From Candidatus Marinacidobacterium sp. (GTDB lineage Bacteria; Acidobacteriota; Vicinamibacteria; Marinacidobacterales; Marinacidobacteraceae): a stretch of 64,000 nucleotides of DNA. The stretch covers positions 2,473,931 to 2,537,930 of the forward strand of contig OZ241856.1 of NCBI GenBank assembly GCA_965202845.1. Direction: 5' to 3'. Below the pieces are notes generated by a model. The model was not told the DNA's origin, made no database searches, and worked only from the letters and a program-made list of their open reading frames with translations. Position numbers and translations under genes: made by a program. Each line of letters begins with the position of its first letter. Within the stretch, counting starts at the first letter, position 1. This document shows, piece after piece, positions 9,332 to 56,603 of the stretch.

Positions 9332-9334
9332 AAC

Positions 9335-12010: not shown

Positions 12011-12021
12011 GACGCTCCCCT

Positions 12022-14168: not shown

Positions 14169-14214
14169 CCCCGCACGACGTTTTCTGTCCGACGCCTGTG
14201 CGATCCTTGCCTCC

Positions 14215-17130: not shown

Positions 17131-17592
17131 ATGCCGCCCCGCAAGCCGAACCGCCCGAGCCGTCCGCTCCCGCGCTACGAGCTGCGGGTTCGGCGGCACG
17201 GACCGGGGGACACCGGCTACGAGGTCTGGCAGCTGCCGGCCCCGGCCACGCCGCAGGTGACCGCGCCGCTGCGGGTCGCCGGGCTGCGGGGGCGCAATCT
17301 CGGCCTAGTGGAGCGCCGGGTTCTCAAGAGGCTCGCGCAGGCGGGCGTCCGGCCGAGCGGGCGGCGCGCCGAACACCCCCTGAACGAGGACCTGGCGCTG
17401 ACGCTCGGCTTGCTGTTCCGGGCGCTCGCGCCGATGCGCAGCCGGGAGAACATGCGGGCGGTCGCCGAGGGGATCGAGGCGATGGGGCGCGAGGAGGCGG
17501 CGTACTGGCTCGGCATGGCCATGCATCGCCCCCGCCCCCGCCGGGCGCTCCTCGCGCTGCGCATCCTGCTCACCCCGCCGGTGGCGAAGTAG
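17131..17592 (+). CDS. Small basic hypothetical protein translationally coupled to the DUF499 gene
   Basis: ATG immediately follows the TAG of the DUF499 gene. 153 aa, Arg-rich, with a helical C-terminal half (EDLALTLGLLFRALAPM...EEAAYWLGMAMH). No family recognised. Confidence 0.55.
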   Translation: MPPRKPNRPSRPLPRYELRVRRHGPGDTGYEVWQLPAPATPQVTAPLRVAGLRGRNLGLVERRVLKRLAQAGVRPSGRRAEHPLNEDLALTLGLLFRALAPMRSRENMRAVAEGIEAMGREEAAYWLGMAMHRPRPRRALLALRILLTPPVAK

Positions 17593-17597
17593 CGACC

Positions 17598-18868
17598 ATG
17601 AGACTGAAGCGGGTCGCAATCGAGAACTACCGCGCGATCGAAACGCTCAACCTGCCGCTGGACCCGAATCTGACGGTGCTTCACGGGGACAACGCGCACG
17701 GCAAGACCAGCGTCCTGGGCGCGATCACTACCGGTCTCGGCATGATTCCCACGTTCCTCCCCGAAGTGTCGGGCGTCGGATTTCGCAGGACCGACCGACG
17801 CGGCCTCCAGCCGGTGCGCGTCGGACTGACCACCACCAACGGCGTTTTGTGGGAACGGCGCGCCGGAGACCCGTCCCGCCGTCCGTCGTCCACGCGGGAC
17901 TTGCGGGAGGCGATGGAGGCCATCGTGAAAGCGGATCGGAACGGAGCGGAACCGATCGATCTGCCCATCGTGGCCTTCTATGACACCGACCGGGCGGTGT
18001 TCGATCCGCCCCAGCGCCGGAGGGATTTCCGACCGATTTTTCCCGCTACCAAGCGCTCCAGGGCGCGCTTTCCGCCCGCACCGATTTCCGGGATTTCTTC
18101 AAATGGTTCTACGCCAAAGAGGGCGAGGAGCTCCGGGCGCAGAGGGAACGGCTGGACTTCGGCCACCGGCTGCATGACCTGGAGGCGGTGCGCCGGGCGA
18201 TTCAAGCGATGGTTCCCGGAGCGTCCAACCCCCGCATCGAGCTGCGTCCGCTTCGTTTTGTCATCTCGATCCAGCCGGATGAAGGCAGTCCGGAGCATCT
18301 CCGAATTGACCAATTGAGTGGCGGCTTCCGAATCATGCTTGCGCTGGCGGCCGACCTCGCCCGTCGAATGGCCCAGGGGAATCCCCATCTTGACGACCCG
18401 CTCCAGTCGGAGGCGGTGGTTCTCATCGACGAGATCGAATTGCACCTGCACCCGTCGTGGCAACAACGGATTCTGGACGACCTGACCCGCACCTTCCCCA
18501 GGACCCAATTCATCGTCTCCACCCACAGCCCGCAGATTACGACCGTCAAGCCGGAACACATCGTGGAACTGCGCCGGGAAGGGGGTGGCGTCGTGGCCGG
18601 GCAGTCTTCCGCCCCGACGTATGGCGCCGAGGCCGGCGAAGTTCTAGCGAGCGTGATGGGGGTGACCGAACGGCCTGGCGGCAACGAATTCGTGAAATCC
18701 TTGAACACGTACAACCGTTTCGTCAGCCGGGGGCAAGGCGAATCGGAAGCTGCACGGAAGCTGCGACGGAGACTTGACAGGCTCTCGCCTCGCGACCCGG
18801 CGCTCAACCGGGCGGATGTGGAAATTCGACGACAGCGCGTCCTGCGGGCTGTGGGGCGACCGAAGTGA
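17598..18868 (+). pseudogene. AAA_15/AAA_23-type ATPase (COG3950-like), frameshifted
   Basis: The N-terminal part is in the frame of 17598 (MRLKRVAIENYRAIETLNL...LHGDNAHGKTSVLGAI). The continuation (DFSRYQALQGAL...FFKWFYAKE..., QLSGGFR, VLIDEIELHLHP, VSTHSP) is in the frame of ORF 18188..18868. The switch maps to a T5 run at 18037..18041; a T6 run would restore one ~420-aa ORF. Confidence 0.7.
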
Positions 18869-18987
18869 AACGCATCTTATTTCGGCGTCCATGCCGAAAA
18901 AGTTCTCTCCCGGCCTCCCCGTGACTGGATTTGAACGCATGGCCGATTTCCTTCATTTCATGAACCTATCTCGTAATTGAAATTTTG

Positions 18988-20455
18988 GGCTCTTTCAAAT
19001 ACCGAGTGGGTACGCGACATGAGGGTTGAGCTTGGAGAAGTCCAGTTTTCCGGCGATGAGGAAGAACACGGTGCGGATGGTCTGGAAGGTTCCGTAGCCT
19101 CTGGCTTTCCGCTTGGCCGCCTGAAACAGGCCGTTGAGCGCCTCGATGAAGCCGTTGGTCTGGCGGGTTCGGGCCCACGCGACGATGCCCTCGAGATGTT
19201 TGCGGATCATCCGCGCGACGGCTTTCATGGGTTCTACCTTGGAGCGGTTCACGTTGGCGCACCACTGCCGGAGCATGGCTCGGACGACGTTGACCTGCTT
19301 GCGGTTGAGGATGTTCCGGAGTTGTTCGCGGTACATCCAGGCTCGGGCGGTGCGCTTGCCGGGGGCCTGCGCGATGAGGGCGTTGAGTTGGGCGCGTTGT
19401 TCGGCGCCGAGTCGTTCGGGGCTCTTGAGGAGCGCCCAGCGCATGCCCTTGAGTTGCGGGTTGGCGCGCTGCTCGATGCGCCGGGTCTGGTCGAGGGCCT
19501 TGGACGCGTGGGCGATGACGTGGAATTTGTCGAAGGTGATTTGGGCGTTGGGGAGATGCTCTGCGACGCCCTTGATGTAGGCGGGGGACATGTCGCTGGA
19601 GGCGACTTCGACGGCTTCGGGGTCTCCGCCGTGGGCTTCGAGGCTTCGGGCGAATCGGTCGACGGAGTCGGCGGCGCGGCCTTCTCCGACGAAGATGACC
19701 CGGCGTTTTCGGGCGTCTGCGACGACGGTGACGTAGTTGTGGCCGCGCGCGCGGGAGGTTTCGTCGATGGCGACGGCGCGGACGTCGGCTTGGTCGTCGG
19801 TTTCGGTGGCGAGTTCCACATAGCGGTTGGAGATGGCCTGGGTTTGGTGCTGGGAGAGTCCGGCGAGCCGTGCGACGGCGGCGAAGGTCATGTCCTGGCA
19901 CATGGCGAGAATCAAGGCTTCGAAGAGGAGGGAGAACCCGGAGAGCTTGCCGGCCCAGGGCGGCGAGACCAGCGCGACCTTGCCGTTGGGGAGGCGCACC
20001 CGGGGGACGCGCGCCACCAGTTCGCACTCGAATTGGAAGAAGTTGAGGTGGCGGAAGCGCTTGGTCTTGGTGTCGTGGACCGGATGGAGGCCGTCGTGGT
20101 TCTGGTGGGCGAAGCGGGCGCCCCTGCGGAAATCGACGCGGATGCTCAGCTTTCCTTGGTCCTTGTCGAATTCCACGTTCTCGACGAACCAGGGGTCCGG
20201 GATGCCGAGGGCTTGGGCGAAAAGCTCGTGTAGCACTGGATGCGCTCCTTTTTTTCAGGGTCGAAAGCGGGAAAAGTGTTCCATTGGTGTGTGGCGACGC
20301 TGGCTGGGGACGGTTGCGGCTTCCCGCTTTCGACCCTTTTTCGAGCGTGCCCGCCGGATTCCGTGAGTCAAGGGTTCGCTACGCCGTGCAAGCCCGCCCT
20401 TGACACCCGGAATCCCGGCGGTCTCCATTCTACCCACTCAAATCTCAATTGAGGC
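18988..20455 (-). mobile_element. ISL3-family insertion sequence nested in the IS5-family element
   Basis: The ends GGCTCTTTCAAATACCGAGTGGGTA (18988) and TACCCACTCAAATCTCAATTGAGGC (to 20455) form imperfect IRs. They are flanked by the 8-bp direct repeat AAATTTTG (18980..18987 and 20456..20463). Confidence 0.75.
18995..20236 (-). CDS. ISL3 family transposase
   Basis: 413 aa. N-terminal zf-ISL3-like region (DPWFVENVEFDKDQGKLSIRVDF) and a DDE_Tnp_ISL3 body (AIDETSRARGHNYVTVV, DMSPAYIKG, NGFIEALNG). Confidence 0.9.
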   Translation of the reverse strand: MLHELFAQALGIPDPWFVENVEFDKDQGKLSIRVDFRRGARFAHQNHDGLHPVHDTKTKRFRHLNFFQFECELVARVPRVRLPNGKVALVSPPWAGKLSGFSLLFEALILAMCQDMTFAAVARLAGLSQHQTQAISNRYVELATETDDQADVRAVAIDETSRARGHNYVTVVADARKRRVIFVGEGRAADSVDRFARSLEAHGGDPEAVEVASSDMSPAYIKGVAEHLPNAQITFDKFHVIAHASKALDQTRRIEQRANPQLKGMRWALLKSPERLGAEQRAQLNALIAQAPGKRTARAWMYREQLRNILNRKQVNVVRAMLRQWCANVNRSKVEPMKAVARMIRKHLEGIVAWARTRQTNGFIEALNGLFQAAKRKARGYGTFQTIRTVFFLIAGKLDFSKLNPHVAYPLGI

Positions 20456-20488
20456 AAATTTTGGGATGATCTGTGTACAATCCAAACC

Positions 20489-21280
20489 ATGTCCCGCTTG
20501 GCCCACTTGATTCGAATCAGAGAAAAATACTGGGGGAAAATTCAGAAATTCTTCCCGGAAGAAAACATCCCCAAAGGACGTCGGGGACGAAAGCCCGTGC
20601 CCGCACGCGAAGTTCTCGAAGCCGTTCTTTGGCTCCTGCATACCGGTGCGCCGTGGAGGTTTCTGCCGCCAGAGTATCCGAATTACAAAACCGTTCATCG
20701 CAGGTATCAAGCCTGGTGTCGCGCCGGTGTTTATCCGAAAATCATGGAGAGATTGGTAGCTGAACTTCAAGAGTGCGGTCAGTACGATGGATCGGAAGGT
20801 TTTATCGACGGAATGTTCTTACCTGCGAAAGGCGGAGGTCTCGAAATCGGACGGACGAAGCGTGGTAAAGGCATGAGGATCATGGCGATAGTTGAGAAAC
20901 ATGGTTTGCCTTACTCGATCAGCGTACATGCTGCGAATCACCACGAAGTGAAGTTGGTTCAGTTGAATCTGCCATTCCGCATGGTAGAAGAAAAACCGAA
21001 AAATCTGATTGGAGACAAAGCCTACGACAGTGATGCGTTGGACGAGGATATGCGCGAGAAAGGAATCAACATGATCGCGCCGCACCGCAAGAACCGAAAG
21101 AGGCCGAGGACGCAAGACGGACGTCGGCTACGTCGGTATCAGAGGAGGTGGATGGTAGAACGCTTCTTCGCGTGGATACAGTGGCAGCGACGGATTCTGA
21201 TTCGATGGGAATTTCATCCAGAAAACTTCTTGGGTTTCGTTCAGCTGGCCTGCATCACAGTCCTTCTCAGGCAATTTTGA
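20489..21280 (+). CDS. IS5 family transposase
   Basis: 263 aa. DUF4096-like N-terminus (LHTGAPWRFLPPEYPNYKTVHRRYQAWC) and DDE_Tnp_1 (IGDKAYDSDAL, RWMVERFFAWIQWQRR). Confidence 0.9.
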   Translation: MSRLAHLIRIREKYWGKIQKFFPEENIPKGRRGRKPVPAREVLEAVLWLLHTGAPWRFLPPEYPNYKTVHRRYQAWCRAGVYPKIMERLVAELQECGQYDGSEGFIDGMFLPAKGGGLEIGRTKRGKGMRIMAIVEKHGLPYSISVHAANHHEVKLVQLNLPFRMVEEKPKNLIGDKAYDSDALDEDMREKGINMIAPHRKNRKRPRTQDGRRLRRYQRRWMVERFFAWIQWQRRILIRWEFHPENFLGFVQLACITVLLRQF

Positions 21281-21318
21281 GATAGGTTCAAAACAAAACA
21301 GCCAAATTCTCACACAAC

Positions 21319-21723
21319 ATGAGAGCGCCCAAAGACATCATCGCAAAAAGGAATCAACCGGGAGATTCCACGGCCTCGTTCCATGCGTTGCAGGAATGGG
21401 ACGGATATGTAGTTGAGATTTATGAAGATGAATTTGTAGCGCGATTGGTGGATTTGACCGCGGGGCATGTTTATGAAAGCGAGGAAGCCACCATCCCGCT
21501 GAAAGCAATCTCGGAACACGACGCGGCCAACATGGAGCTTGGTAGTTTCTTTCGTTGGGAAATCGGATATGAGACGTCTCTCAAGGGGATCCGGAAAAGA
21601 GTGTCCCGAATCATCTTTTTTCATATTCCAATAACTAAAAGCGACATCGAAAGAGGTCGAAAGTGGGCGGAGGAGATATTGGAAGCCTTCGAATCAAGTG
21701 ATGAAAAATCAAATGTCGAATGA
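21319..21723 (+). CDS. Hypothetical protein (low-GC orphan ORF)
   Basis: 134 aa with non-repetitive composition. GC is about 45% against about 70% in the neighbours. The 3' end overlaps the DUF1156 gene start by 26 nt. No family recognised. Confidence 0.4.
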   Translation: MRAPKDIIAKRNQPGDSTASFHALQEWDGYVVEIYEDEFVARLVDLTAGHVYESEEATIPLKAISEHDAANMELGSFFRWEIGYETSLKGIRKRVSRIIFFHIPITKSDIERGRKWAEEILEAFESSDEKSNVE

Positions 21724-24604
21724 CGAGCGGCTGATCGAGCGGTGGCTCCCGATCGCGGAGATCGGGGAGGAGAGCGCCCGCGAACGGCGGTCCATGACCG
21801 CGCTGCCGCCAACCTACTACCTGCATGTGTGGTGGGCGCGTCGCCCGCTGGTGGCGAGTCGTGCGGCGGTGTTGGCTTCGTTGTTGCCGGGGGATGCGGA
21901 TCGGGGGGCGTTTTTGCATGCGCTGGGGATCCACGGCGACCCGGTGGCCGTGCGCCGCAGGTTGGACGAAGCCAAGCGGACCAAGCCCAGGCAGAACCTC
22001 GGCCCCAATCCCTATGGCTACCGGCGGGCGTTCACGTACTCGCCGAGCGGGGAGGAGTGGGACAAACTTCGGAGTCCCGGGCCAGAAGCCAAAGTCCTGG
22101 ATCCAACCGCCGGCGGGGGCAGCATCCCCTTCGAGGCGGTGCGTCTGGGGTTCGCGGCGCATGCGAATGACCTGAACCCGGTGGCCGCCCTGATCCTGAA
22201 GGCCACGGCGGAATGGCCCGCCGAGCATCATGCCCGGTTGCTTCCCGAGTTCCAGCAACTGGCCGACGAGTTTCTGAGTCGGGCGGCGCCGAAGTACCAG
22301 GGCGTCTTCCCGCCGGAGCCGGAAGGGACTCTCGTTGAGGGCTACCTGTGGGCGCGGACGGTGGGGTGTCCGTACTGCGGGGGGTTGGTTCCGCTTTCGC
22401 CGAACTGGCGGCTGGCGCCGGATGGGACCGGGGTGCGTTTGGCGCCGGAAGTGGGGGAGGGGCCGGGGTCTTCGGGTCGGGTCTGTTCGTTCGAGATTGT
22501 GGGGACGGCTGCGGAGCAGTCGGCGGGGACGGTGGCGCGGGGGGACGGGGCGTGTCCGTTCCCGGATTGCGGGCGGGTGATCGAGGGTTCGGCGATCAAG
22601 GCGCAGGCGCGGGCGGGGGAGATGGGGGAGCAGCTGTACGCGGTGGTGTACAAGCGGCGGGTTCCGCGGATTCTGAAGTCGGGGAAGGCGGGGAAGCCGC
22701 GGTGGGAGCGGGGCTACCGGGCGCCGGGGGCGGGGGACGACGACCGGGAAGCGATCGCGGAGCGGCTTGCGGAGAAGCTGCCGGAGTGGGAGGCGTATGA
22801 CCTGGTTCCGAACGAGCGCATCCCGGACGGCAACAAGACCACCGAGCCGCATCGGTACGGGATGCCGCGCTGGCGGGACTTGTTTTCGCCGCGGCAGTTG
22901 CTGTGCCATGGGACGAGCGTGGAGGTCTTTCGGGAGCTGCTGGAGGCAGATCGGGAGGCGGGGAGGTTGACCGATGCGCGGCAGGCGGCGTATGGCTACC
23001 TGGCGCTCTCGCTGGACAAGGTGCTCAGCTACAACAACATCATGTGCCGCTGGCATTCCGGTCGCGAAGTCATGGCCCAAATCTTCGACCGGCACGACTT
23101 CGCGCTCAAGTGGTCCTATGCGGAGATGGCGCCCTTGGTCGCCGGGGTCGGCTACGACTGGGCCATCGGCCAGACCGCCAAGTGCGTGAAGGAGCTGGTC
23201 GCGCTGCTCCGCCCCGAAGGCCCGCTTCCGGCGCAGCGGGACGCCCCGCCGCCGGTCTCGATCACCGCGAAGCCGGGCGACGCCCTGGACCACCTGGAGG
23301 ACGCCAGCGTGGACGCGGTGGTGATGGACCCGCCCTACTACGACAACGTGATGTACGCCGAGCTTTCGGACTTCTTCTACGTCTGGCTCAAGCGCACCGC
23401 CGGGCATGCGTTCCCGGAGTTGTTCCGGCGCATCCTGACCGACAAGGAGGGGGAGGCGGTGGCGAACCCGGCGCGCTTTCGGGGGGAGAAGGGGGCGAAG
23501 GAGTTGGCCGGGCGGGAGTACCAGGATCGGATGGCGCAGATCTTCGCCGAGTGCCGCCGGGTTCTGAAGCCGGACGGGATTCTGACGCTGATGTTCACGC
23601 ACAAGGCGACCGGGGCGTGGGACGCCTTGACCGCCGGGCTGATCGAGGCGGGGTTCGTCATCACCGCTTCGTGGCCGATCCACACCGAGGCGGAGGGGAG
23701 CTTGCATATCCGGGACAAGGCGGCGGCGAGCAGCACGATCTTTTTGGTCTGCCGTCCGCGCCCGGAGCGGGAGGCGGGAGAGGAGACCCGGTACTGGGAG
23801 GAGGTGGAGGGGGACGTCACGCGGGCGGTGGGGGAGAAGGTCCAACAGTTCGAGGCGGAGGGGATTTCGGGGGTGGACTTGTATCTGGCGTGCTTCGGGC
23901 CGGCGCTTCGGGAGTTTTCGCGGCGTTGGCCGCTGGAGCGGGGGAAGCCGCGCCGGCGGGCGCCGCAAAGTGCGAGGCGGCGGCTGCTGGAGGAGGGGTG
24001 GGATGCGTATGCGGTGACGGCGGAGGACGCGCTGGAGGCGGCGCGTCGGGAGGTGAAGCGGTTCCGGCTGGAGCGGCTGACGCGGATGAAGGCGGGGGCG
24101 GACCTGGACGGGACGACGGCGTTCTTCGTGCTGGCGTGGGACGCCTTCAAGGCGCCTTCGTTTCCTTACGACGAGGCGCTGCGGCTGGCGCGCGCGGTGG
24201 GGGTGGATTTGGAGGGGGATGTGGTGGGGAGGTTGGGGGGGAAGCGGGGGAGTCTGGTGACGCTTTGGGACAGCGGGCAGCGCGCGGCGAAATCGGCGTT
24301 GGGGGCGGAGGATGGTTCCAGGGGGATGATCGACGCTTTGCACCATGCGGCGTGGCGGGGGCGTTCCAGGGGTCTGGAGGATTGCCGGAAGTGGTTGGGG
24401 GAGATGGGTTTGGGGGAGGATGCGGGGTTCCGGACGGCTTTGAAGGCTGCGCTGGAGGTGTTGCCGGTATCGGGGGCGTTCGGGGGGGAGGAGCTGGAAG
24501 GTGAGGCGGCGGCTTCGGGGGACGATTTCGCGGCGCTCGAAAAGCTGCGGCGCACCGTCTTCGAAACAATCGTTCCCGAACCGGAACAGCTGCAGCTGCT
24601 CTGA
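21698..24604 (+). CDS. DUF1156 domain DNA methyltransferase with Zn-ribbon (COG1743-like)
   Basis: 968 aa. N-terminal DUF1156 signature (ERWLPIAEIGEESARER...YYLHVWWARRPLVASRA), Cys pairs CPYCGG...CPFPDCG, and catalytic motif VVMDPPYYDNV. Confidence 0.85.
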   Translation: MMKNQMSNDERLIERWLPIAEIGEESARERRSMTALPPTYYLHVWWARRPLVASRAAVLASLLPGDADRGAFLHALGIHGDPVAVRRRLDEAKRTKPRQNLGPNPYGYRRAFTYSPSGEEWDKLRSPGPEAKVLDPTAGGGSIPFEAVRLGFAAHANDLNPVAALILKATAEWPAEHHARLLPEFQQLADEFLSRAAPKYQGVFPPEPEGTLVEGYLWARTVGCPYCGGLVPLSPNWRLAPDGTGVRLAPEVGEGPGSSGRVCSFEIVGTAAEQSAGTVARGDGACPFPDCGRVIEGSAIKAQARAGEMGEQLYAVVYKRRVPRILKSGKAGKPRWERGYRAPGAGDDDREAIAERLAEKLPEWEAYDLVPNERIPDGNKTTEPHRYGMPRWRDLFSPRQLLCHGTSVEVFRELLEADREAGRLTDARQAAYGYLALSLDKVLSYNNIMCRWHSGREVMAQIFDRHDFALKWSYAEMAPLVAGVGYDWAIGQTAKCVKELVALLRPEGPLPAQRDAPPPVSITAKPGDALDHLEDASVDAVVMDPPYYDNVMYAELSDFFYVWLKRTAGHAFPELFRRILTDKEGEAVANPARFRGEKGAKELAGREYQDRMAQIFAECRRVLKPDGILTLMFTHKATGAWDALTAGLIEAGFVITASWPIHTEAEGSLHIRDKAAASSTIFLVCRPRPEREAGEETRYWEEVEGDVTRAVGEKVQQFEAEGISGVDLYLACFGPALREFSRRWPLERGKPRRRAPQSARRRLLEEGWDAYAVTAEDALEAARREVKRFRLERLTRMKAGADLDGTTAFFVLAWDAFKAPSFPYDEALRLARAVGVDLEGDVVGRLGGKRGSLVTLWDSGQRAAKSALGAEDGSRGMIDALHHAAWRGRSRGLEDCRKWLGEMGLGEDAGFRTALKAALEVLPVSGAFGGEELEGEAAASGDDFAALEKLRRTVFETIVPEPEQLQLL

Positions 24605-27600
24605 TGCTGCGCGACCACGACTGGAAACCCAGGTACACATCCGATGACGGAAACCTGGCCCGGTTGCTCCATGTCCCGGCGCTCCGGGACGCGGTGCGCT
24701 ACGACCGGCTGACCGGGTTCTTCAACGCGGCGGCGCTGACGCTCGCGGCGCGTGGGATCGAGGACCTGGCGCGAAACGGCGGAAAGATGCGGCTGGTGGT
24801 CGGCTGCACGCTGGAGCCCGACGAAATCAAGGCGATCCAGAATGGTGAGGCGCTCCGGGAGCAGGTCGAACGGCGGATGGCGGGCGCCCCGCTGGCGCCG
24901 CCCGACGATGTGGCGGCGGACGCGCGGGAGTTGCTGGCGTGGATGGTCAAACACCGGTTGCTTGATGTGAAGGTCGCCGTGCCCTGCGACGAGGGGGGCG
25001 CGCCGGTTTCCGACAATTCCCTTTTTCACGTGAAGATCGGCGTCATCGAGGACAAGAGCGGCGACAAGCTGGCGTGGGACGGGAGCGTCAACGAAACCGA
25101 AGCCGGCTTGCGGCGCAATTGGGAGAGCGTCAACGTCTTTGCGAGTTGGGACGATCCGAAGCGGGTCGAGCTGGACGAGGCCGAGTTCAACCGCGTCTGG
25201 ACCGGGAAGGCGAAGCGCCTGATCGTGATGGACGTGCCGGAAGCGGTGCGCCGGGAGCTGCTGAAGCACGCGCCGCGGTCGGGGAAGCCGAAACGCCTCC
25301 GGGAGGACGACGACTTGCGGAACCGGGTCTGGGCGTTCCTCCGGGACGCGCCGAAACAGCCGGGCGGCGGCGAACGCATCGGCGAGGCGACCGCGGCGGT
25401 GGACCCGTGGCCGCACCAGGCGCGGGCGCTGGCGCGCCTCTACCAGAATTGGCCGCCGCGCCTTTTGATCGCCGACGAGGTGGGGCTCGGCAAGACCATC
25501 GAGGCCGGACTGCTGCTGCGCCAGGCGTGGCTCGCCGGGAAGGCGAGGCGGGTTCTGATCCTCGCGCCCAAGGCGGTGCTGGGGCAGTGGCAGGTCGAAC
25601 TACGGGAGAAGTTCAATCTCGACTGGCCGATCTACGACGCCGGCAAGCTCCGGTGGTATCCGACGCTGGCGAGCGGGCGGCGCGAACGGGAGGTCGGGCG
25701 CGACGCATGGCGCAAGGAGCCGTTCGTCATCGCCTCCAGCCAGCTGATGCGCCGGAAGGATCGGATGGACGAGCTTCTGCGCTCCGACGCCAGGTGGGAC
25801 CTGATCGTGCTGGACGAGGCGCACCACGCCCGGAAAAGTCCTGGCGGAAGCGCCAACCACCTGCTCCGGCTCATGCGGGGACTCAAGGATCGGGCGCCGG
25901 GACTCCTGCTCCTCACCGCGACGCCGATGCAGGTGCATCCGGTCGAGGTCTGGTGCTTGCTGGACCTGCTGGGACTGCCGCCGGAATGGAGCGAGGAGGC
26001 GTTTTTGCGCTTCTTCGAGGACGTGGAGGCGGAGGCGCCGTCGCGTGACGCGAGGGATCGGATGGCGGCGCTCTTCCAGGCGACCGAGAAGGCCTGCGGA
26101 CCGGTCGTGGAGGAGGAGAGCCTTTCGGGAAGAGCGGCGCTCCGGGCGCTGCGGGACCCCGCCTCGATCCCCCGCCGGAACCTCGAAGGCGAAACGCTGC
26201 GGACGGCGCTGCGGATCCTGCGGGCCGGAAGTCCGGCGCGGCGGCTGATCTCGCGCAACACCCGGGAGCTGCTGCGCCGCTACCGCAAGAAGGGGGTGAT
26301 GGACTTGCCGGTGGCGGAGCGCGACGTGGCGGATCGCTGGCTCGGCATGAGCGACGGCGAGCGGGCGCTCTACGAGGACGTCAAGGACTACATCCGGACG
26401 ACCTTCAACCGGGCCGAATCCGGCCAGCGGCGCGCGGTCGGCTTCGTGATGACGGTGTACGCCCGCCGTCTCGCCAGCAGCCTGGAGGCGCTCCGGCGGA
26501 CGCTCGAAAGGCGGCTTCAAGGCGAGTTCAAGGCTGTTGAGGACGACGTCCCGGACGACGAAACCCGGGACGACGCGACCCAGGACGTCCTGGACGCCGA
26601 GGAGACCGGGAGGCTGGCGCGGGAGGCGTTCGCCGTCGAGGAGCGAACCGGAATCGAGGAGCTGCTCGCGGCGATCCGGGAGCTTCCGACCGACAGCAAG
26701 CTGCAGTCGCTCCGGGCCGAACTCGCCGACCTGCGCAAGGCCGGCTACGAGCAGGTGATGGTCTTCACCCAGTACGCCGACACCATGGACTTCCTGCGCC
26801 GCATGCTGATCGGGGAAACGGGCGGGGCGCTCATGTGCTACTCCGGGCGCGGCGGCGAAATCCCGGAGGCATCGGGAGGCTGGCGGGTCATCCGGCGCGA
26901 GGAGGCCAGGCGGCGCTTCCAGGAGGGCGGGGCGGACATCCTGCTCTGCACCGACGCCGCCGCCGAGGGACTCAACTTCCAGTTCTGCGGCGCGGTCGTC
27001 AACTACGACATGCCGTGGAACCCGATGCGGGTCGAGCAGCGGATCGGGCGCATCGACCGGCTGGGGCAGAGGCATCCGACCATCCGCATCCGCAACCTGT
27101 TCTACCGGGAGTCGGTCGAGACGAACGTCTACGCCACGCTCCGCAACAGCCACGGCCTGTTCCAGAAGGTGGTGGGGCGGCTCCAGCCGATCCTGGCGAA
27201 GCTGCCCGGCCGGATCCAGAAGGAGCTGCTGGAAGGCGAAACGGCGGTGGTCGAAGACGAGCCGGAGGGGCCGGGGTTTGACCTGGATCGGATCGCCGAG
27301 GCCGATCTGGTCATGCCGGAGCGCCCGGCGCCGACGGCGACGATGGCGGATCTGGAGCGGATTCTGGCGGCGGCGGAGCGGCTGATGCCGCCCGGCTACG
27401 AGGTGGAGCGGTTGCCGCCGCACGGGTACAAGCTGCGCAAGCCGGGAGGGGAGTGGGCGCGCGTGACGACCGACGTCGGGTTCTTCGAGGAGCACTCCGA
27501 CAGCGTGGAGCTCTGGTCGCCCGGGAACCCGCTCTTTCCCGAACCGGCGATCCCCGAGGGGTTGGAGCCGGAGCGCCGCCGGACGCTGAGGGAGATTCTG

Positions 27601-27615
27601 GACGAAGCCGGGTGA
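24604..27615 (+). CDS. PLD-like nuclease domain fused to SNF2-family helicase
   Basis: 1003 aa. N-terminal PLD-like HxK segment (LFHVKIGVIEDK...GSVNET). SNF2 motifs LIADEVGLGKTIEAG and VLDEAHHAR. C-terminal helicase motifs (LLCTDAAAEGLNFQ, NPMRVEQRIGRIDRLGQ). The start overlaps the methyltransferase stop (TGATG). Confidence 0.85.
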   Translation: MLRDHDWKPRYTSDDGNLARLLHVPALRDAVRYDRLTGFFNAAALTLAARGIEDLARNGGKMRLVVGCTLEPDEIKAIQNGEALREQVERRMAGAPLAPPDDVAADARELLAWMVKHRLLDVKVAVPCDEGGAPVSDNSLFHVKIGVIEDKSGDKLAWDGSVNETEAGLRRNWESVNVFASWDDPKRVELDEAEFNRVWTGKAKRLIVMDVPEAVRRELLKHAPRSGKPKRLREDDDLRNRVWAFLRDAPKQPGGGERIGEATAAVDPWPHQARALARLYQNWPPRLLIADEVGLGKTIEAGLLLRQAWLAGKARRVLILAPKAVLGQWQVELREKFNLDWPIYDAGKLRWYPTLASGRREREVGRDAWRKEPFVIASSQLMRRKDRMDELLRSDARWDLIVLDEAHHARKSPGGSANHLLRLMRGLKDRAPGLLLLTATPMQVHPVEVWCLLDLLGLPPEWSEEAFLRFFEDVEAEAPSRDARDRMAALFQATEKACGPVVEEESLSGRAALRALRDPASIPRRNLEGETLRTALRILRAGSPARRLISRNTRELLRRYRKKGVMDLPVAERDVADRWLGMSDGERALYEDVKDYIRTTFNRAESGQRRAVGFVMTVYARRLASSLEALRRTLERRLQGEFKAVEDDVPDDETRDDATQDVLDAEETGRLAREAFAVEERTGIEELLAAIRELPTDSKLQSLRAELADLRKAGYEQVMVFTQYADTMDFLRRMLIGETGGALMCYSGRGGEIPEASGGWRVIRREEARRRFQEGGADILLCTDAAAEGLNFQFCGAVVNYDMPWNPMRVEQRIGRIDRLGQRHPTIRIRNLFYRESVETNVYATLRNSHGLFQKVVGRLQPILAKLPGRIQKELLEGETAVVEDEPEGPGFDLDRIAEADLVMPERPAPTATMADLERILAAAERLMPPGYEVERLPPHGYKLRKPGGEWARVTTDVGFFEEHSDSVELWSPGNPLFPEPAIPEGLEPERRRTLREILDEAG

Positions 27616-27633
27616 GGGCGCGGCCCGCTCCGA

Positions 27634-28116
27634 TCAGCCGCCGCCCAGGAGCGCCGCGATCAGCCGTTCCAGGACCGGGCGCAGGAACGAGCCGATCACC
27701 AGCAGGGCGAATCCGGCCGCCACCGCCACTCCGACTCCCACCTCGAATTTGCGGCGATGCGCCTCCCGCTCCAGCATCGCCCTGTTCTGGGCGCGGATCT
27801 CCAGCACCACCTCCTTGAGATCGACGAGCTCTTCCCGCAACGCGGTCTCGATCCGCTTCCGATCCGCCGCCGCCTCGCGAAACCCCTCCCGGACCTGCTG
27901 CCGCAGATCCCCGATGTCCCGGCGGTTCACCTGAACCGCCTCCCGGAGACCGCCCATCTGCACATTGAGCCAATCGAGCCGGTCCAGCTCGTTGGGCCGA
28001 TCCGAACGATCCGGGCCGTCCCGGCGCCCCGTCATCCGATCCCCTTTTGCATCGTGATCCTCAGTGTACAACGCGGCGACAGCCGCGTCGGTTGGCTTCG
28101 TTGCGGGCGCACCCAT
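27634..28116 (-). CDS. Tail-anchored coiled-coil membrane protein, paralog 1 (160 aa)
   Basis: ATG preceded by GAAGGAGG. Acidic/Pro-rich N-terminus, conserved LDRLDWLNVQMGGLREAV, a Glu/Arg/Ala helix, a C-terminal TM segment (VGVGVAVAAGFALLVIGSFL) and an ERLIAALLGGG tail. Confidence 0.65.
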   Translation of the reverse strand: MGAPATKPTDAAVAALYTEDHDAKGDRMTGRRDGPDRSDRPNELDRLDWLNVQMGGLREAVQVNRRDIGDLRQQVREGFREAAADRKRIETALREELVDLKEVVLEIRAQNRAMLEREAHRRKFEVGVGVAVAAGFALLVIGSFLRPVLERLIAALLGGG

Positions 28117-28223
28117 GAGCGGTGACCTCCTTCTCTACCCATATATACACGCACGGGAAGCGATTTTGTCCCGCCACTTGCCCAAATTGTGGAAAACTCG
28201 GCGAAAAGAGGCCTTCCCTCCGG
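28117..28223 (-). promoter_or_regulatory. Conserved leader/promoter spacer of array unit 1
   Basis: On the coding strand: TTTTCCACAATTTGGGCAAGTGGCGGGACAAAATCGCTTCCCGTGCGTGTATATATGGGTAGAGAAGGAGGTCACCGCTCATG. It contains an AT-rich TATATAT box and a strong SD. It is repeated at 28836..28941 and 29467..29573, and in diverged form at 30144..30245. Confidence 0.35.
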
Positions 28224-28835
28224 TCAGCCGCCGCCCAGGAGCGCCGCGATCAGGCGTTCGAGGACCGGGCGCAGGAACGAGCCGACCACCAGCAGGGCGA
28301 GTCCGGCAGCCACCGCCACCCCGACTCCCACCTCGAATTTGCGGCGATGCGCCTCCCGCTCCAGCATCGCCCTGTTCTGGGCGCGGATCTCCAGCACCAC
28401 CTCCTTGAGATCGACGAGCTCTTCCCGCAACGCGGCGCGTTCGGCGGCGGCGCGCTCCTCGATCCGCTTCCGCTCCGCTGCCGCCTCGCGCAGACCGTCC
28501 GCGAGCTCCTTCCGCAGCGCGGTCTCGATCCGCTTCCGCTCCGCAGCCGCCTCCCTCTCGACCCGCTTCCGCTCCGCCGCCGCCTCGCGAAACCCCTCCC
28601 GGACCTGCTGCCGCAGATCCCCGATGTCCCGGCGATTCACATGAACCGCCTCCCGGAGACCGCCCATCTGCACATTGAGCCAATCGAGCCGGTCCAGCTC
28701 ATTGGGCCGACCCGAACGATCCGGCCGATCCGGGCCGCTCTGGCGCCCCGTCATCCGATCCCCTTCTGCATCGTGATCCCCAGTGTGCAACGCGGCGACA
28801 GCCGCGTCGGTTGGCTTCGTTGCGGGCGCACCCAT
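28224..28835 (-). CDS. Tail-anchored coiled-coil membrane protein, paralog 2 (203 aa)
   Basis: Same architecture as paralog 1, carrying both the extra 11-aa cassette (VEREAAAERKR) and the 29-aa insert (KELADGLREAAAERKRIEERAAAERAALR). Confidence 0.65.
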   Translation of the reverse strand: MGAPATKPTDAAVAALHTGDHDAEGDRMTGRQSGPDRPDRSGRPNELDRLDWLNVQMGGLREAVHVNRRDIGDLRQQVREGFREAAAERKRVEREAAAERKRIETALRKELADGLREAAAERKRIEERAAAERAALREELVDLKEVVLEIRAQNRAMLEREAHRRKFEVGVGVAVAAGLALLVVGSFLRPVLERLIAALLGGG

Positions 28836-28941
28836 GAGCGGTGACCTCCTTCTCTACCCATATATACACGCACGGGAAGCGATTTTGTCCCGCCACTTGC
28901 CCAAATTGTGGAAAACTCGGCGAAAGGAGGCCTTCCTCCGG
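28836..28941 (-). promoter_or_regulatory. Conserved leader/promoter spacer of array unit 2
   Basis: Near-identical copy of 28117..28223. Confidence 0.35.
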
Positions 28942-29466
28942 TCAGCCGCCGCCCAGGAGCGCCGCGATCAGGCGTTCCAGGACCGGGCGCAGGAACGAGC
29001 CGATCACCAGCAGGGCGAGTCCGGCAGCCACCGCCACTCCGACTCCCACCTCGAATTTGCGGCGATGCGCCTCCCGCTCCAGCATCGCCCTGTTCTGGGC
29101 GCGGATCTCCAGCACCACCTCCTTGAGCTCGGCGAGCTCTCCCCGCAACGCGGTCTCGATCCGCTTCCGCTCCGCCGCCGCCTCCCTCTCGACCCGCTTC
29201 CGCTCCGCCGCCGCCTCGCGAAACCCCTCCCGGACCTGCTGACGCAGATCCCCGATGTCCCGGCGATTCACCTGAACCGCCTCCCGAAGACCGCCCATCT
29301 GCACATTGAGCCAGTCGAGCCGGTCCAGCTCGTTGGGCCGATCCGAACGATCCGGCCGATCCGGGCCGCTCTGGCGCCCCGTCATCCGATCCCCTTCCGC
29401 ATCGTGATCCTCAGTGTACAACGCGGCGACGGTCGCGTCGGTTGGCTTCGTTGCGGGTTCACCCAT
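28942..29466 (-). CDS. Tail-anchored coiled-coil membrane protein, paralog 3 (174 aa)
   Basis: Same architecture, carrying only the 11-aa cassette. Confidence 0.65.
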   Translation of the reverse strand: MGEPATKPTDATVAALYTEDHDAEGDRMTGRQSGPDRPDRSDRPNELDRLDWLNVQMGGLREAVQVNRRDIGDLRQQVREGFREAAAERKRVEREAAAERKRIETALRGELAELKEVVLEIRAQNRAMLEREAHRRKFEVGVGVAVAAGLALLVIGSFLRPVLERLIAALLGGG

Positions 29467-29573
29467 GAGCGGTGACCTCCTTCTCTACCCATATATACAC
29501 GCACGGGAAGCGATTTTGTCCCGCCACTTGCCCAAATTGTGGAAAACTCGGCGAAAAGAGGCCTTCCCTCCGG
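29467..29573 (-). promoter_or_regulatory. Conserved leader/promoter spacer of array unit 3
   Basis: Near-identical copy of 28117..28223. Confidence 0.35.
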
Positions 29574-30143
29574 TCAGCCGCCGCCCAGGAGCGCCGCGAT
29601 CAGGCGTTCCAGAACGGGGCGCAGGAACGAGCCGACCACCAGCAGGGCGAATCCGGCCGCCACCGCCACTCCAACTCCCACCTCGAATCTGCGGCGATGC
29701 GCCTCCCGCTCCAGCATCGCCCTGTTCTGGGCGCGGATCTCCAGCACCACCTCCTTGAGATCGACGAGCTCTTCCCGCAACGCGGCGCGTTCGGCGGCGG
29801 CGCGCTCCTCGATCCGCTTCCGCTCCGCTGCCGCCTCGCGCAGACCGTCCGCGAGCTCCTTCCGCAGCGCGGTCTCGATCCGCTTCCGCTCCGCTGCCGC
29901 CTCGCGAAACCCCTCCCGGACCTGCTGCCGCAGATCCCCGATGTCCCGGCGGTTCACCTGAACCGCCTCCCGGAGACCGCCCATCTGCACGTTGAGCCAA
30001 TCGAGCCGGTCCAGCTCGTTGGGCCGATCCGGCCGATCCGGGCCGTCCCGGCGCCCCGTCATCCGATCCCCTTCCGCATCGTGATCCTCAGTGTACAACG
30101 CGGCGACGGTCGCGTCGGTTGGCTTCGTTGCGGGCGCACCCAT
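29574..30143 (-). CDS. Tail-anchored coiled-coil membrane protein, paralog 4 (189 aa)
   Basis: Same architecture, carrying only the 29-aa insert. Confidence 0.65.
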   Translation of the reverse strand: MGAPATKPTDATVAALYTEDHDAEGDRMTGRRDGPDRPDRPNELDRLDWLNVQMGGLREAVQVNRRDIGDLRQQVREGFREAAAERKRIETALRKELADGLREAAAERKRIEERAAAERAALREELVDLKEVVLEIRAQNRAMLEREAHRRRFEVGVGVAVAAGFALLVVGSFLRPVLERLIAALLGGG

Positions 30144-30245
30144 GAACGGTGACCTCCTTTGCTACGTATACATACACGCACGGGAAGCCGTTTTGTTGCG
30201 TCGCTTTTCCAAATTGTGGAAAACTCGGCGAAGAAAGCCGAATTC
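30144..30245 (-). promoter_or_regulatory. Diverged leader/promoter region of array unit 4
   Basis: Same layout (SD, ATACATAC box, CCAAATTGTGGAAAACTCGGCGAA core) with several substitutions. Bounded by the stop of the dmpA-like gene. Confidence 0.3.
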
Positions 30246-31409
30246 TCAGTCTCCCCCTTCCGGCGGGTGGAGCCGGTTGTACTTGCGTCCCACCTCCAGC
30301 AGGTCGGAGAGCGGCAGCGCCTCCCGGCGGTTCCCGTCCCGCCCGACCACGGTGGTCGCCTTGAGCATGGAGTTGTAGACCGCCTCCTCGGTCGCTTCGA
30401 TCACTGCCTGGAAGAGCGGGGAGAGGGCGTCGCCGCGCAGGGTCCGGCCCGGCTCCAGGGGGTCCTCCGAATCGAAGCCGCTGCGGAGCGCGGGCGCGGT
30501 CGAAAAGGCGATCACGAAGTCGCCGCTGCCGTGCGAGGAGGTGGCGCCGGTGCGGGCCAGGCCGAGCATCGCCCGCCGCGCCAGCCGGGTCAGGCCGAGC
30601 GAGCGGATGGGGGCGTCGGTCGCCACCACCATCATGATCGACCCGTCCGGGTTCGAGGACCCGGCGTCCTCCGCCGCGTCCCGGAGGTAGTGCCGACCGA
30701 GCTCCTGGCCCACCGGCAAGCCGTCCATCGTGAGCACCCCGCCGTAGTTGCTCTGGACCAGCGCGCCCACCGTGTATCCGCCGAGCGAAGCCGGCAGCCG
30801 GCGCGAGGATGCGCCGATGCCGCCCTTCCAGCCGAAAGCCGATGTGCCGGTTCCGGCGCCCACCGACCCCTCTTCGACCGGGCCTTGGTTCGCGGCGCGG
30901 ATCGCCTCCAGGACGTGGCGCTCCTCCACGTGGAAACCGCGGATGTCGTTGAGGAAGCCGTCGTTGGTCTCCCCCACCACCGGATTCACCGAGCGCACCG
31001 CCTCGTTGCCCGGAGCGGCCAGGGTGTGGCGCGCCACCGCCCGGGCGGCGTCCCAGACCGAAAGGGTGTTGGTCAGCACCACCGGGGTCTCGATGGTCCC
31101 CAGCTCGATCACCTGGGCGGCGCCCACCAGCTTGCCGAAGGCGTTGCCGACGTGGATCGCGCCGGGAACCTTCTCCTGGAACAGGTTTCCGCCGTGCGGC
31201 AGGATCGCGGTGACGCCGGTGCGGACGCTCTCGCCCTCGATCAGGGTGACCTGCCCCACCCGGACGTCGGGGACGTCGGTGATCGAGTTCAACGGGCCGG
31301 GCGCCAGCACGCCGGGCGCCAGGCCGATGTCCCGGGCGCGGGGGCGCGGCTCCTGCCCGAATACGACAGCAGCAGCGATCCAAAAGCATGGAACGAGGAG
31401 GGAGCGCAT
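30246..31409 (-). CDS. P1/S58 family peptidase (DmpA-like L-aminopeptidase/D-esterase), secreted
   Basis: 387 aa with a signal peptide. GVTAILP, GETNDG and GAGTGT motifs of the DmpA/Ntn fold. Confidence 0.85.
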   Translation of the reverse strand: MRSLLVPCFWIAAAVVFGQEPRPRARDIGLAPGVLAPGPLNSITDVPDVRVGQVTLIEGESVRTGVTAILPHGGNLFQEKVPGAIHVGNAFGKLVGAAQVIELGTIETPVVLTNTLSVWDAARAVARHTLAAPGNEAVRSVNPVVGETNDGFLNDIRGFHVEERHVLEAIRAANQGPVEEGSVGAGTGTSAFGWKGGIGASSRRLPASLGGYTVGALVQSNYGGVLTMDGLPVGQELGRHYLRDAAEDAGSSNPDGSIMMVVATDAPIRSLGLTRLARRAMLGLARTGATSSHGSGDFVIAFSTAPALRSGFDSEDPLEPGRTLRGDALSPLFQAVIEATEEAVYNSMLKATTVVGRDGNRREALPLSDLLEVGRKYNRLHPPEGGD

Positions 31410-31465
31410 GGGAAACGCAAGAATACGGGAACCTTTCCGGAGGCGCCTTCGTAATCCTTCTTCCC

Positions 31466-32218
31466 ATGCCCCGCGCGCTCGCCCTCCTCGTCCTTTTCGC
31501 CGCCTCCGGGTGCTCGGCGTCCTTTCCCGGAGGGTCCGGTTCGGAAGAGACCCAGGTCTTCCGCGAGGACTTCCAGGACGGCGAAGCGTTCGAACTCCGC
31601 AACATCAACGGGAAGGTGCGGGTCGAAAGCTGGGAGGAGGCGGGCGCCGAAATCCACGCGCGCAAGGTCGCGGCGAACCCGGCGGCGCTCCGGGAGACCA
31701 CCGTCGAAATCCGCCGCACCGGCGACGGGCTGCGGGTGCGCACCCGCCACGCCAAGCGGTTCTTCGGACAGGGCGTCCGGGTGCACTACCGGGTGCGGCT
31801 GCCGGCCGCCGCCGAAGTCCGGATCGAAACCGTCAACGGACCGGTGGAGGTCGCCGGATTCTCCGGGCCGGTGGAGGCGCAGACAGTCAACAGCGGGATC
31901 CGGCTGGAGGGCCAGCGCGGGCGGGTCAACGCCAGGACGGTCAACGGCGCCATCGAATGCGAGCTGGAGGAGCTGGGCGCCGACCACTCCCTCCGCACGG
32001 TGAACGGACAGGTGGAACTGACCCTGGGGGCCGGCGCAAGCGGCGAGGTGGACGCGCAGGCGATGAACGGGAGGGTGCGGCTGGATCTGCCCGACGCCAC
32101 CAACCTGAAGACGCCGACCCGGCGCGGGAAGAAGGTGCGGCTGGGCGACGGCGACGGGGGCACCTGCCGCATCCGCACCATGAACGGGACGATCCGGGTG
32201 GCCAGCCGGGACGACTGA
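31466..32218 (+). CDS. DUF4097-like beta-repeat lipoprotein
   Basis: Lipobox LFAASGC after Met at 31466. Repeated V(N/T)G.(V/I) beta-strand units (NINGKVRVE, TVNGPVEV, TVNGAIEC, TVNGQVEL, MNGRVRL, MNGTIRV). Confidence 0.75.
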   Translation: MPRALALLVLFAASGCSASFPGGSGSEETQVFREDFQDGEAFELRNINGKVRVESWEEAGAEIHARKVAANPAALRETTVEIRRTGDGLRVRTRHAKRFFGQGVRVHYRVRLPAAAEVRIETVNGPVEVAGFSGPVEAQTVNSGIRLEGQRGRVNARTVNGAIECELEELGADHSLRTVNGQVELTLGAGASGEVDAQAMNGRVRLDLPDATNLKTPTRRGKKVRLGDGDGGTCRIRTMNGTIRVASRDD

Positions 32219-32253
32219 CGTTCGGCGGATAGGCTTCCCGGCGGCCGCCGCCC

Positions 32254-32373
32254 ATGCCAGAGCCTTCCCCACCCGAACGCGACGGGTTCGCCCGCCTGTA
32301 CGCGGCGGCGCTGGCGGTGGAGTTCCTCTTCTGCCTGCTGCTCCTGTGGTTCTCCGGGGCGTTCCGGGGCTGA
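32254..32373 (+). CDS. Putative 39-aa membrane peptide coupled to the symporter gene
   Basis: Own translation: MPEPSPPERDGFARLYAAALAVEFLFCLLLLWFSGAFRG. The TGA is immediately followed by the ATG of the SSS gene (TGAATG). It has one hydrophobic helix and is below the ORF-track size cut-off. Confidence 0.35.
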   Translation: MPEPSPPERDGFARLYAAALAVEFLFCLLLLWFSGAFRG

Positions 32374-56506: not shown

Positions 56507-56582
56507 TGGCGCGCCCTGGGCGATTCGAACACCCGACCTACAGGTTCGTAGCCTGTTGCTCTATCCGCTGAGCTAAGGGCGC
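56507..56582 (-). tRNA. tRNA-Arg (anticodon ACG), CCA encoded
   Basis: Folded by hand: acceptor GCGCCCT/AGGGCGC, D arm GCTC-AGCGGATA-GAGC, anticodon arm ACAGG-CTACGAA-CCTGT, T arm GGGTG-TTCGAAT-CGCCC, and G-CCA at the 3' end. Confidence 0.9.
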
Positions 56583-56603
56583 GACCGGGAGCCGGGGTCG
56601 GGG

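Follow-up and report, generated by a model that had tools for sequence, protein, structure and literature searches.

A tandem array of promoter-plus-gene cassettes for predicted tail-anchored coiled-coil proteins beside an Hma island in Candidatus Marinacidobacterium

Background

Proteins of the YqjD/ElaB/YgaM family are stress-induced and tail-anchored, and their N-terminal part binds ribosomes, so that these are tethered or inactivated at the membrane; the family, including the features of its C-terminal tail anchor, has been described (bioRxiv 10.1101/2024.08.16.608256), and a report on ElaB links that protein to oxidative stress (PMC6389858). These are the closest described counterparts of the proteins considered here, which are encoded by four near-identical genes repeated in tandem in a 64,000-nucleotide stretch of a Candidatus Marinacidobacterium genome (contig OZ241856.1, hereafter the window). 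The array lies directly beside the genes of an Hma (helicase-methylase-ATPase) anti-phage system.

From an analysis of the array, its leaders, its homologs and its insertion site, we regard it as reasonably probable that the four genes are a lineage-specific tandem amplification of a self-contained promoter-plus-gene cassette that encodes an Acidobacteria-specific tail-anchored inner-membrane protein, that the copies have been kept similar by gene conversion, and that the protein serves as a regulated tether or scaffold at the membrane, independently of the Hma system.

Results

Organization and coding strand of the array

The array consists of four open reading frames (ORFs) that follow one another head to tail on the minus strand, each with a leader of ~107 bp; ORFs, lengths, and leaders are all as given in a preliminary description of this DNA. 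Copy 4 (29574..30143) is transcribed first and encodes 189 residues, including a 29-residue module (66-bp repeat at 29800-29933) and lacking the extra 11-residue module found in other copies. Its leader (30144..30245) begins right after the stop codon of the gene for an S58/P1-family peptidase. Copy 3 (28942..29466; leader 29467..29573) encodes 174 residues and shows the reverse combination, having the extra 11-residue module (33-bp repeat at 29154-29217) without the 29-residue module. The 203 residues of copy 2 (28224..28835; leader 28836..28941) include both the extra 11-residue module (33-bp repeat at 28523-28586) and the 29-residue module. Copy 1 (27634..28116; leader 28117..28223), supported by its ORF, the alignment, the GC content at third codon positions (GC3), and codon-position bias, is the shortest at 160 residues and has neither module. 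The units align over their full length and differ in length only by three in-frame indels: 9 bp, corresponding to a PDR/SGR unit; 33 bp, one additional copy of the 11-residue module EAAAERKRVER; and 87 bp, the 29-residue module. In an alignment of the four products, identity to copy 1 is 93-96%, and the sequence blocks quoted in the preliminary description are invariant.

The array ORFs on the minus strand genuinely code for protein and are under purifying selection, because variable sites among the copies split 7:8:20 over codon positions 1:2:3 of the minus frame, pairwise synonymous divergence (dS) is 0.05-0.09 with ratios of nonsynonymous to synonymous divergence (dN/dS) of 0.22-0.72, the indels are in frame, and homologs of the minus-frame protein exist in other genomes. 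GC3 is 0.82-0.84 for these genes versus 0.77-0.78 for the mirror ORFs on the plus strand. The mirror ORFs, kept as an alternative in the preliminary description, are ruled out as true genes by GC3, codon-position bias, dN/dS, and cross-genome homology.

A conserved putative promoter in each leader

Overlooked so far, the leader appears to be the family's own conserved promoter region. The 9-mer TTTTCCACA occurs 20 times in 378 kb (the window and the loci described below, both strands), and 19 of these occurrences precede a family or family-like gene by a fixed distance. The layout is CGA[CG]TTTTCCACA, 14-15 nt, GGGA[AC], 16-17 nt, CGT[CG]TG, and then ~20 nt, including a GGAGG ribosome-binding site, up to the start codon. 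CGA[CG]TTTTCCACA is an invariant 13-mer, and CGT is likewise invariant, with a spacer of 16-17 nt, in 19 promoters; the promoter blocks are thus invariant while the proteins behind them are only 30-60% identical. In the leader of copy 1, the upstream conserved block CGAGTTTTCCACA lies at 28200-28188 and is followed by a -35-like GGGAC (28172-28168), a -10-like CGTGTA (28151-28146), and a Shine-Dalgarno sequence, AAGGAGG (28132-28126), all on the minus strand. The promoter blocks of copies 2 and 3 lie at 28919-28865 and 29550-29496, respectively. Leader 4 retains CGAGTTTTCCACA at 30227-30215, and its -35-like block reads GCAAC, as opposed to GGGAC in leaders 1-3; GCAAC occurs only there, the -35 block of family promoters being GGGAA[AG] or GGGAC.

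The signal is one at the DNA level, because RNAalifold on 12 leaders found no conserved structure (consensus -1.0 kcal/mol, 4 pairs) and Rfam searches of the leaders, at gathering and at E<=10, returned noise only; a structured cis-regulatory leader RNA is ruled out by the same results. No sigma-70 promoter or intrinsic terminator was found in the leaders. The CGT(C) -10 element and the 16-17-nt spacer fit published promoters of extracytoplasmic function (ECF) sigma factors (PMC5758882), from which we infer that each array copy is transcribed from an alternative-sigma, ECF-like promoter. We call this class assignment putative because AAC is not a fixed part of the -35 block and none of the promoter instances was found to have a sigma or anti-sigma gene beside it. 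With the leader as the family's putative promoter, each array unit is therefore a complete promoter-plus-gene cassette. Two other kinds of repeat array were considered and rejected. For an integron cassette array, there is no attC site, the flanks hold no integrase, and what lies between the genes is the promoter that also precedes single-copy orthologs; for targets of a diversity-generating retroelement, there is no reverse transcriptase, and the variation consists of repeat-module indels and scattered single-nucleotide polymorphisms (SNPs).

Evolution of the array

The pattern of variation is the one expected of unequal crossing-over combined with internal-repeat slippage and with gene conversion that acts least at the array edge, as judged from the identity of the inner leaders, the divergence of the edge leader, and the conflicting groupings of SNPs and indels. 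Leaders 1-3 are 100% identical over 92 nt and show 0 differences across the 88 aligned columns upstream of the ATG, despite a dS of 0.05-0.08 between the genes, at which ~4-7 differences per leader pair would be expected if the leaders were neutral; the edge leader, that of unit 4, differs from the others at 14 of the 88 columns (~85% identical). Each of the three possible bipartitions of the copies finds support among the SNPs, and every one of the four combinations of the 33-bp and 87-bp indels is present, a four-gamete pattern. The conflicting bipartitions and the four-gamete indels bear out the earlier proposal of recent duplication or gene conversion.

The genome with the closest S58 ortholog holds another tandem array (L011:5142-8979, minus strand), on the opposite side of the same DUF4097-S58 gene pair. 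Its 5-6 near-identical genes encode 108-144 residues; each product has a transmembrane (TM) helix at the N-terminus and a conserved C-terminus, ..LRERMARVEGLLEGLRESITGKRAA, and the number of its 11-residue repeats (RIDAQGEQLRQ) varies. The leaders of these genes, of ~330 bp, are without the TTTTCCACA motif. This independent array of a different membrane coiled-coil family in the closest relative suggests that such arrays recur in the lineage.

Protein architecture and family

AlphaFold2 predicts residues 1-45 of the product to be disordered and residues 46-200 to form a single continuous helix, with a predicted local distance difference test score >90 over ~100 residues. The helical core has a hydrophobic period of ~3.6 residues and 37-52% charged residues, and hydropathy analysis marks one ~19-residue hydrophobic stretch followed by a 16-residue C-terminal tail, LRPVLERLIAALLGGG. 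The array products have no signal peptide. The natural reading of these predictions, in line with the tail-anchored coiled-coil architecture proposed before, is a C-tail-anchored inner-membrane protein with a cytoplasmic stalk of the coiled-coil type. C-terminal sorting signals (GlyGly-CTERM and similar) were rejected on reading the sequence, given the wrong motif order and the missing signal peptide.

That no family could be assigned to the proteins holds across Pfam, PHROGs, NCBIfam, and PADLOC, none of which gave a significant match to the window proteins, and a PDB profile search returned coiled-coil noise only (spike HR1, ApoA-I chains). Only six close members emerged from a word-indexed search of 5.8 billion proteins, and a single 2.86-Mb contig carries them all: the four window copies together with P0004 (159 residues, 91% identical) and P0006 (178 residues, 42% identical; a divergent paralog), both encoded at other sites of this genome. 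Among 1.84 billion representatives, an exhaustive profile search yielded 29 proteins at E<1e-3, and a second profile search, of 5.8 billion proteins, yielded 140 clusters, none of them functionally named; where the sources name one at all, it is as 'hypothetical protein [Acidobacteriota bacterium]'. The array genes thus belong to a rare, uncharacterised family found only in Acidobacteria.

An alignment of 17 sequences defines the family further. The N-terminus reads M..P.KKP...[AP]-Y-T, with an invariant Tyr-Thr, and the blocks ALDRxLTDGLNLxH and RENRRDIKxLR are shared. The core holds a lineage-specific number of 11-, 18-, 22-, or 29-residue repeats, which are coiled-coil periodicities, for a total of 166-348 residues. 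The C-terminal part comprises an LERS..RRL segment, a Gly-containing TM helix, a near-invariant Pro, and LERAVAALFGG; G193 in the TM helix is invariant, P198 is near-invariant, and the conserved tail after the TM helix has the form LRPxLERxxAALxGG. Sub-threshold Pfam matches occur in the relatives, to Apolipoprotein (7/17), CCDC90-like/DUF1640 (5/17), DUF1664 (5/17), DUF3040 (5/17), and XhlA (2/17); they mirror architecture and periodicity and amount to no demonstrable homology. Matches to PHROG holin and hemolysin families occur in a single relative, P0016, where they are confined to internal repeats. The likeness to XhlA/DUF1640-type holin-associated proteins that had been noted before therefore stands for the architecture and falls for homology, the matches being sub-threshold and patchy or restricted to one relative's repeats.

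Neighborhoods of the homologs

Thirteen homolog loci lie outside the window (L001-L010 and L015-L017), 11 of type A, from at least 10 other genomes, and two of type B. The eight genome loci recovered all come from metagenome-assembled genomes of Acidobacteria, namely Vicinamibacteria, Ca. Marinacidobacterium, and unclassified Acidobacteria bins. Type-A homologs are single-copy at each locus except L004, which has two copies, and they sit in a conserved order of genes for an M10-like peptidase (-), an HhH-GPD glycosylase (+), the family protein (+), a Fer4_19/CDGSH protein (+), and an MBL hydrolase (-). This neighborhood adjoins the Suf operon, an amidase gene, and PGI, and none of these neighbors occurs in the window. 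The two type-B loci have unrelated, housekeeping-like contexts.

No Hma gene stands beside the family gene at any of the 13 loci, a count made from the side of the family, the contexts of other Hma systems not having been surveyed. The family is absent from phage (50,697 records), plasmid, and IMG/VR collections, and scans of genome contigs and metagenome contigs for the window subtype gave no match. The suggested link of the family to defense or mobile loci is thus largely refuted: the homologs are single-copy genes in a core neighborhood without Hma.

A few elements in these loci deserve mention in their own right. In a Vicinamibacteria genome, a 183-bp element resembling a miniature inverted-repeat transposable element (L003:10085-10267), with 25-nt terminal inverted repeats (AACAGCCTGTGGTGAAAGTGACGCG), interrupts a type-A ortholog directly after the PYT motif. 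A three-gene CTD10/MC6/DUF2326 module of the conflict-system type (L015:3926-6821) is inserted ~3 kb from a type-A gene, and a PhdYeFM/PIN pair lies ~8 kb from the family gene in several loci. Defense-type genes are therefore present in the wider neighborhoods of the homologs, and they are neither adjacent nor consistent.

A candidate regulon

A motif scan of Joint Genome Institute metagenomes returned 25 loci, whose downstream genes comprise 2 of the family, 11 of a 'type C', 8 of a 'type D', 2 for ComM/YifB, and 2 for an ATPase with T2SSE and MshEN domains; at 21 of the 25, the gene downstream encodes a small single-pass coiled-coil protein that has an [AP]-Y-T motif. Type C proteins are tail-anchored coiled coils with ..LFRALxxAG....AAYTA.., 7- or 11-residue repeats, and a C-terminal TM helix, whereas type D proteins have an N-terminal [SP]-Y-T, a central TM helix, and a C-terminal coiled coil with 11-residue repeats. 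The motif lies upstream of a T2SSE+MshEN (PilB/MshE-like) ATPase or ComM/YifB gene at L020:1628-1679, L031:9387-9438, L022:5487-5538 (minus strand), and L037:2008-2059. At L010:7042-8612, two adjacent cassettes have nearly identical leaders of ~100 nt and different proteins, a 159-residue type C protein (7142-7621) and a 203-residue type-B family member (8001-8612). An hhalign comparison of the family with type C gave a probability of 52% and E=1.4e-4, with an alignment confined to the coiled coil and TM helix.

The family and type C nevertheless have the promoter and the Tyr-Thr motif in common, which speaks for a joint functional program, and the promoter probably marks out a small regulon whose members are single-pass coiled-coil proteins of similar design. 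A broader version of this proposal, which we advance only tentatively and hold to be more doubtful than not, is that marine, possibly sponge-associated Acidobacteria have a regulon that has gone unrecognised and of which the array is the most expanded member. In this regulon, the promoter CGACTTTTCCACA-N14/15-GGGAA-N16/17-CGTC would control four or more families of small single-pass coiled-coil membrane proteins that differ in architecture and all have an N-terminal [AP]-Tyr-Thr, in addition to ComM and a PilB/MshE-type ATPase. If so, the Tyr-Thr peptide would be a shared docking or modification site, and the variation in stalk length, amplified in arrays, would tune a membrane-proximal machine, perhaps one for DNA uptake, pili, or host interaction.

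Insertion site and the Hma island

The S58 peptidase gene (30246..31409, minus strand) is a flanking core gene whose orthologs, 83-88% identical, anchor the synteny comparison and identified the three closest genomes. Blastn breakpoints and the relatives' gene maps show that a 16.1-kb segment (14171..30254), the Hma island followed by the array, is absent from all three at the convergent TENA/S58 junction. In two of these genomes the stop codons of the S58 and TENA genes are 7-23 bp apart, and in the third a single aldehyde dehydrogenase gene lies between them. Because the closest genomes are without the segment, the array is not ancestral at this junction; it shares a variable slot with the Hma island. 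The earlier placement of the array at the edge of an island is thereby made concrete, array and Hma together forming one 16-kb insertion relative to the three genomes.

Within the segment, PADLOC and Pfam identify HmaC (DUF499; 14215-17130), a DUF7680 gene (17131-17592), HmaB (DUF1156 methylase; 21698-24604), and HmaA (PLD-SNF2; 24604-27615). Between the DUF7680 gene and HmaB lie a split Septu PtuA-like ATPase, whose two ORFs overlap (17598-18317 and 18188-18868), and two transposases, one of ISL3 on the minus strand (18995-20236) and one of the IS5 family (20489-21280). The island itself is a mosaic between HmaC and HmaB (17131-21723), and GC drops to 0.54-0.55 over 20-22 kb. The HmaA stop codon ends at 27615 and that of array unit 1 starts at 27634, which leaves 18 nt between the convergent stops, as reported before. 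PADLOC gave no match for the 203-residue copy, while the neighbors match HmaC, HmaB, and HmaA.

Gene order around the junction (7000-14170 and 30255-36000) is rearranged relative to the closest genomes: in the window, the stretch from biotin carboxylase to the island holds PIG-L, a Na/sulfate symporter, and TENA, which in one of the compared loci (L012) are found between S58/Aldedh and an SSF transporter. Farther along the window, on the minus strand (56661-57621), an ORF that starts at 57621 begins MARLERPRDGRLLLGVCAGLAKWW.. and looks like a PspC-domain N-terminus; its neighbors are a rhomboid protease gene (57637-58710), an IS4/5-type transposase (58756-60414), and two tRNAs (56510-56675). 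A further match to the -35/-10 pattern (57573-57600) falls inside this PspC-like coding sequence and is taken as chance.

Discussion

We picture the history and function of the array as follows. Unequal crossing-over between cassettes yielded four copies, and gene conversion keeps them alike, the main differences being in-frame gain or loss of repeat modules. The cell thereby has four independently promoted copies, or five with P0004, with array stalks of 160-203 residues. Each product is predicted to comprise a disordered, charged cytoplasmic N-terminus with Tyr-Thr, a long amphipathic helix, a Gly-rich TM helix, and a short conserved tail. The 11-, 18-, and 29-residue modules would set the length of the helical stalk, so that the protein, as a regulated membrane tether or scaffold, could hold the N-terminal Tyr-Thr motif at a set distance from the membrane, a logic modelled on the stress-induced, tail-anchored YqjD and ElaB. 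The Tyr-Thr peptide would be the business end of the protein. Amplification would raise dosage and supply length variants. The array would not be part of the adjacent Hma anti-phage system, the two merely sharing a variable intergenic slot.

Several points weigh against this account. The array and the Hma genes are contiguous and together make up the sole difference at the junction from the three closest genomes, so that the two may conceivably have arrived together on a single mobile segment and thus be linked in function. Copy number is known from one assembly. The GC3 of the array, at 0.82-0.84, is below the 0.90-0.95 of the surrounding core genes, which could stem from repeat composition or from a foreign origin. 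The tether or scaffold function is drawn from analogy and not from homology, in that there is no DUF883 match, and topology, oligomeric state, and binding partners of the product are predictions. The leaders, finally, depart from ECF-sigma promoters in their -35 block, GGGAA or GGGAC without the fixed AAC.

Of the competing explanations, the one that fares best, and that we nevertheless consider doubtful, makes the proteins functional equivalents of YqjD/ElaB/YgaM, tethering or inactivating ribosomes at the membrane under stress. The overall design is shared (an alpha-helical protein, a C-tail anchor with a conserved Gly and an adjacent helix-breaking Pro, multiple paralogs, and an alternative-sigma-type promoter), and the connection of ElaB with oxidative stress has a parallel in the position of the type-A ortholog among Suf, CDGSH, and HhH-GPD genes. 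However, no window protein matches DUF883 at E<=10 and DUF883 is not among the families that recur in the 17 relatives, the N-terminus of the window copies is acidic or Pro-rich and not obviously suited to ribosome binding, and the stalks vary in length and are 2-3 times longer.

Defense systems commonly use small single-TM proteins as effectors, and it is conceivable that the four genes form an accessory or effector module of the Hma system, for example as membrane-disrupting abortive-infection effectors amplified under phage pressure. The 18 nt that separate the array from HmaA and the shared insertion, at a junction only 7-23 bp wide in two of the three closest genomes, speak for such a module. 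We judge it unlikely, since Hma neighbors are missing from the homolog loci outside the window, PADLOC finds no match, the convergent orientation places the array outside the Hma operon, the family promoter carried by each copy also drives non-defense genes (ComM and the PilB-like ATPase), and the near-identical fifth copy P0004 and the divergent paralog P0006 lie elsewhere in the genome. The role of membrane-disrupting or defense effector put forward in the preliminary description likewise finds no match in PADLOC or in the phage, plasmid, and IMG/VR collections, and the homologs occupy a core neighborhood; the adjacency of array and Hma is real, and a defense role is unsupported.

That the number and order of the copies reflect an over-expanded or mis-joined repeat in the assembly seems improbable. 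A 2.6-kb array of ~650-bp units, roughly 96% identical, is hard to assemble; however, SNPs and three indels tell the units apart, which means that the array is not trivially an artefact of duplicated assembly, the 2.86-Mb contig suggests long reads, and both array edges join conserved flanks cleanly. Least plausible of all, and already effectively refuted, is an origin as XhlA/holin-type lysis-associated proteins of a prophage remnant, to which the coiled coil with its C-terminal TM helix, the XhlA matches of 2/17 relatives (E>=0.006), and the holin and hemolysin matches of P0016 might point, but against which stand the want of any XhlA, holin, or PHROG match better than E=0.05 in the window proteins, the restriction of the P0016 matches to repeats, the lack of phage genes nearby and of matches in the phage records or IMG/VR, and the core chromosomal neighborhood of the orthologs.

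Read as an amplified, self-contained cassette, the array corrects an attractive but unsupported defense-effector interpretation, adjacency here meaning a shared insertion slot and not a shared system. It also brings to light a previously unrecognised, phylum-restricted family of tail-anchored coiled-coil proteins, together with that family's conserved promoter and hence a candidate alternative-sigma regulon in uncultured Acidobacteria that can be traced by its DNA motif alone. As an instance of molecular evolution, it is a clear example of how concerted evolution and repeat slippage give rise to a set of stalk-length variants.

Among known systems, several share parts of this design. The 203-residue array product matches no PADLOC model, those of HmaA, HmaB, and HmaC included. 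XhlA (PF10779) is likewise a short coiled coil with a C-terminal TM helix, but it has no match at E<=10 in the four window proteins and reaches 2/17 relatives only at E>=0.0058, below threshold, and the array has no prophage or lysis-cassette context, with the S58 peptidase gene on one side and Hma genes on the other, and has no match in phage collections. Apolipoprotein and LEA-type 11-mer proteins have comparable internal repeats of 11 or 11+7 residues, as reflected in the weak Pfam matches of 7/17 relatives and the ApoA-I chains in the PDB profile search; these are far-sub-threshold matches of composition and periodicity, whereas the array family is predicted to be membrane-anchored and has its conserved parts outside the repeats. 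DUF1640/CCDC90-like proteins (PF07798) and DUF1664 proteins also place a coiled coil before a C-terminal TM helix, and each is matched weakly by 5/17 relatives, but all DUF1640 matches lie below the gathering score of 33.5 bits (best E=6.5e-4; P0010, for example, scores 15.2 bits) and the window copies have none. The N-terminal helix of type C, ..AG[VA]xxxxAAYTA.., presumably recalls the DUF1640 N-terminus.

The leaders resemble ECF-sigma promoters in their invariant CGT(C/G) -10 element, in the G-rich/A -35 block 16-17 nt upstream of it, and in a short 5' untranslated region that runs into a strong Shine-Dalgarno sequence, and differ, apart from the -35 sequence, by the additional invariant 13-mer 14-15 nt farther upstream. 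YqjD, ElaB, and YgaM are, like the array family, small alpha-helical proteins without a signal peptide, with a single C-terminal TM helix that has conserved glycines and an adjacent Pro, several paralogs per genome, a stress or alternative-sigma promoter, and, by analogy, a functional cytoplasmic N-terminal part. The array family differs in the missing DUF883 sequence match, in its longer stalk built of 11-, 18-, and 29-residue repeats, in a conserved 13-15-residue tail after the TM helix that ends in GG and not RR, in the invariant N-terminal Tyr-Thr, and in its restriction to Acidobacteria. YqjD/ElaB/YgaM are thus, in our view, the nearest functional analogy, with membership failing on sequence. 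Tail-anchored coiled-coil proteins are a known kind of protein and tandem amplification is an ordinary configuration; the unexpected extra is the putative promoter and, with it, the candidate regulon.

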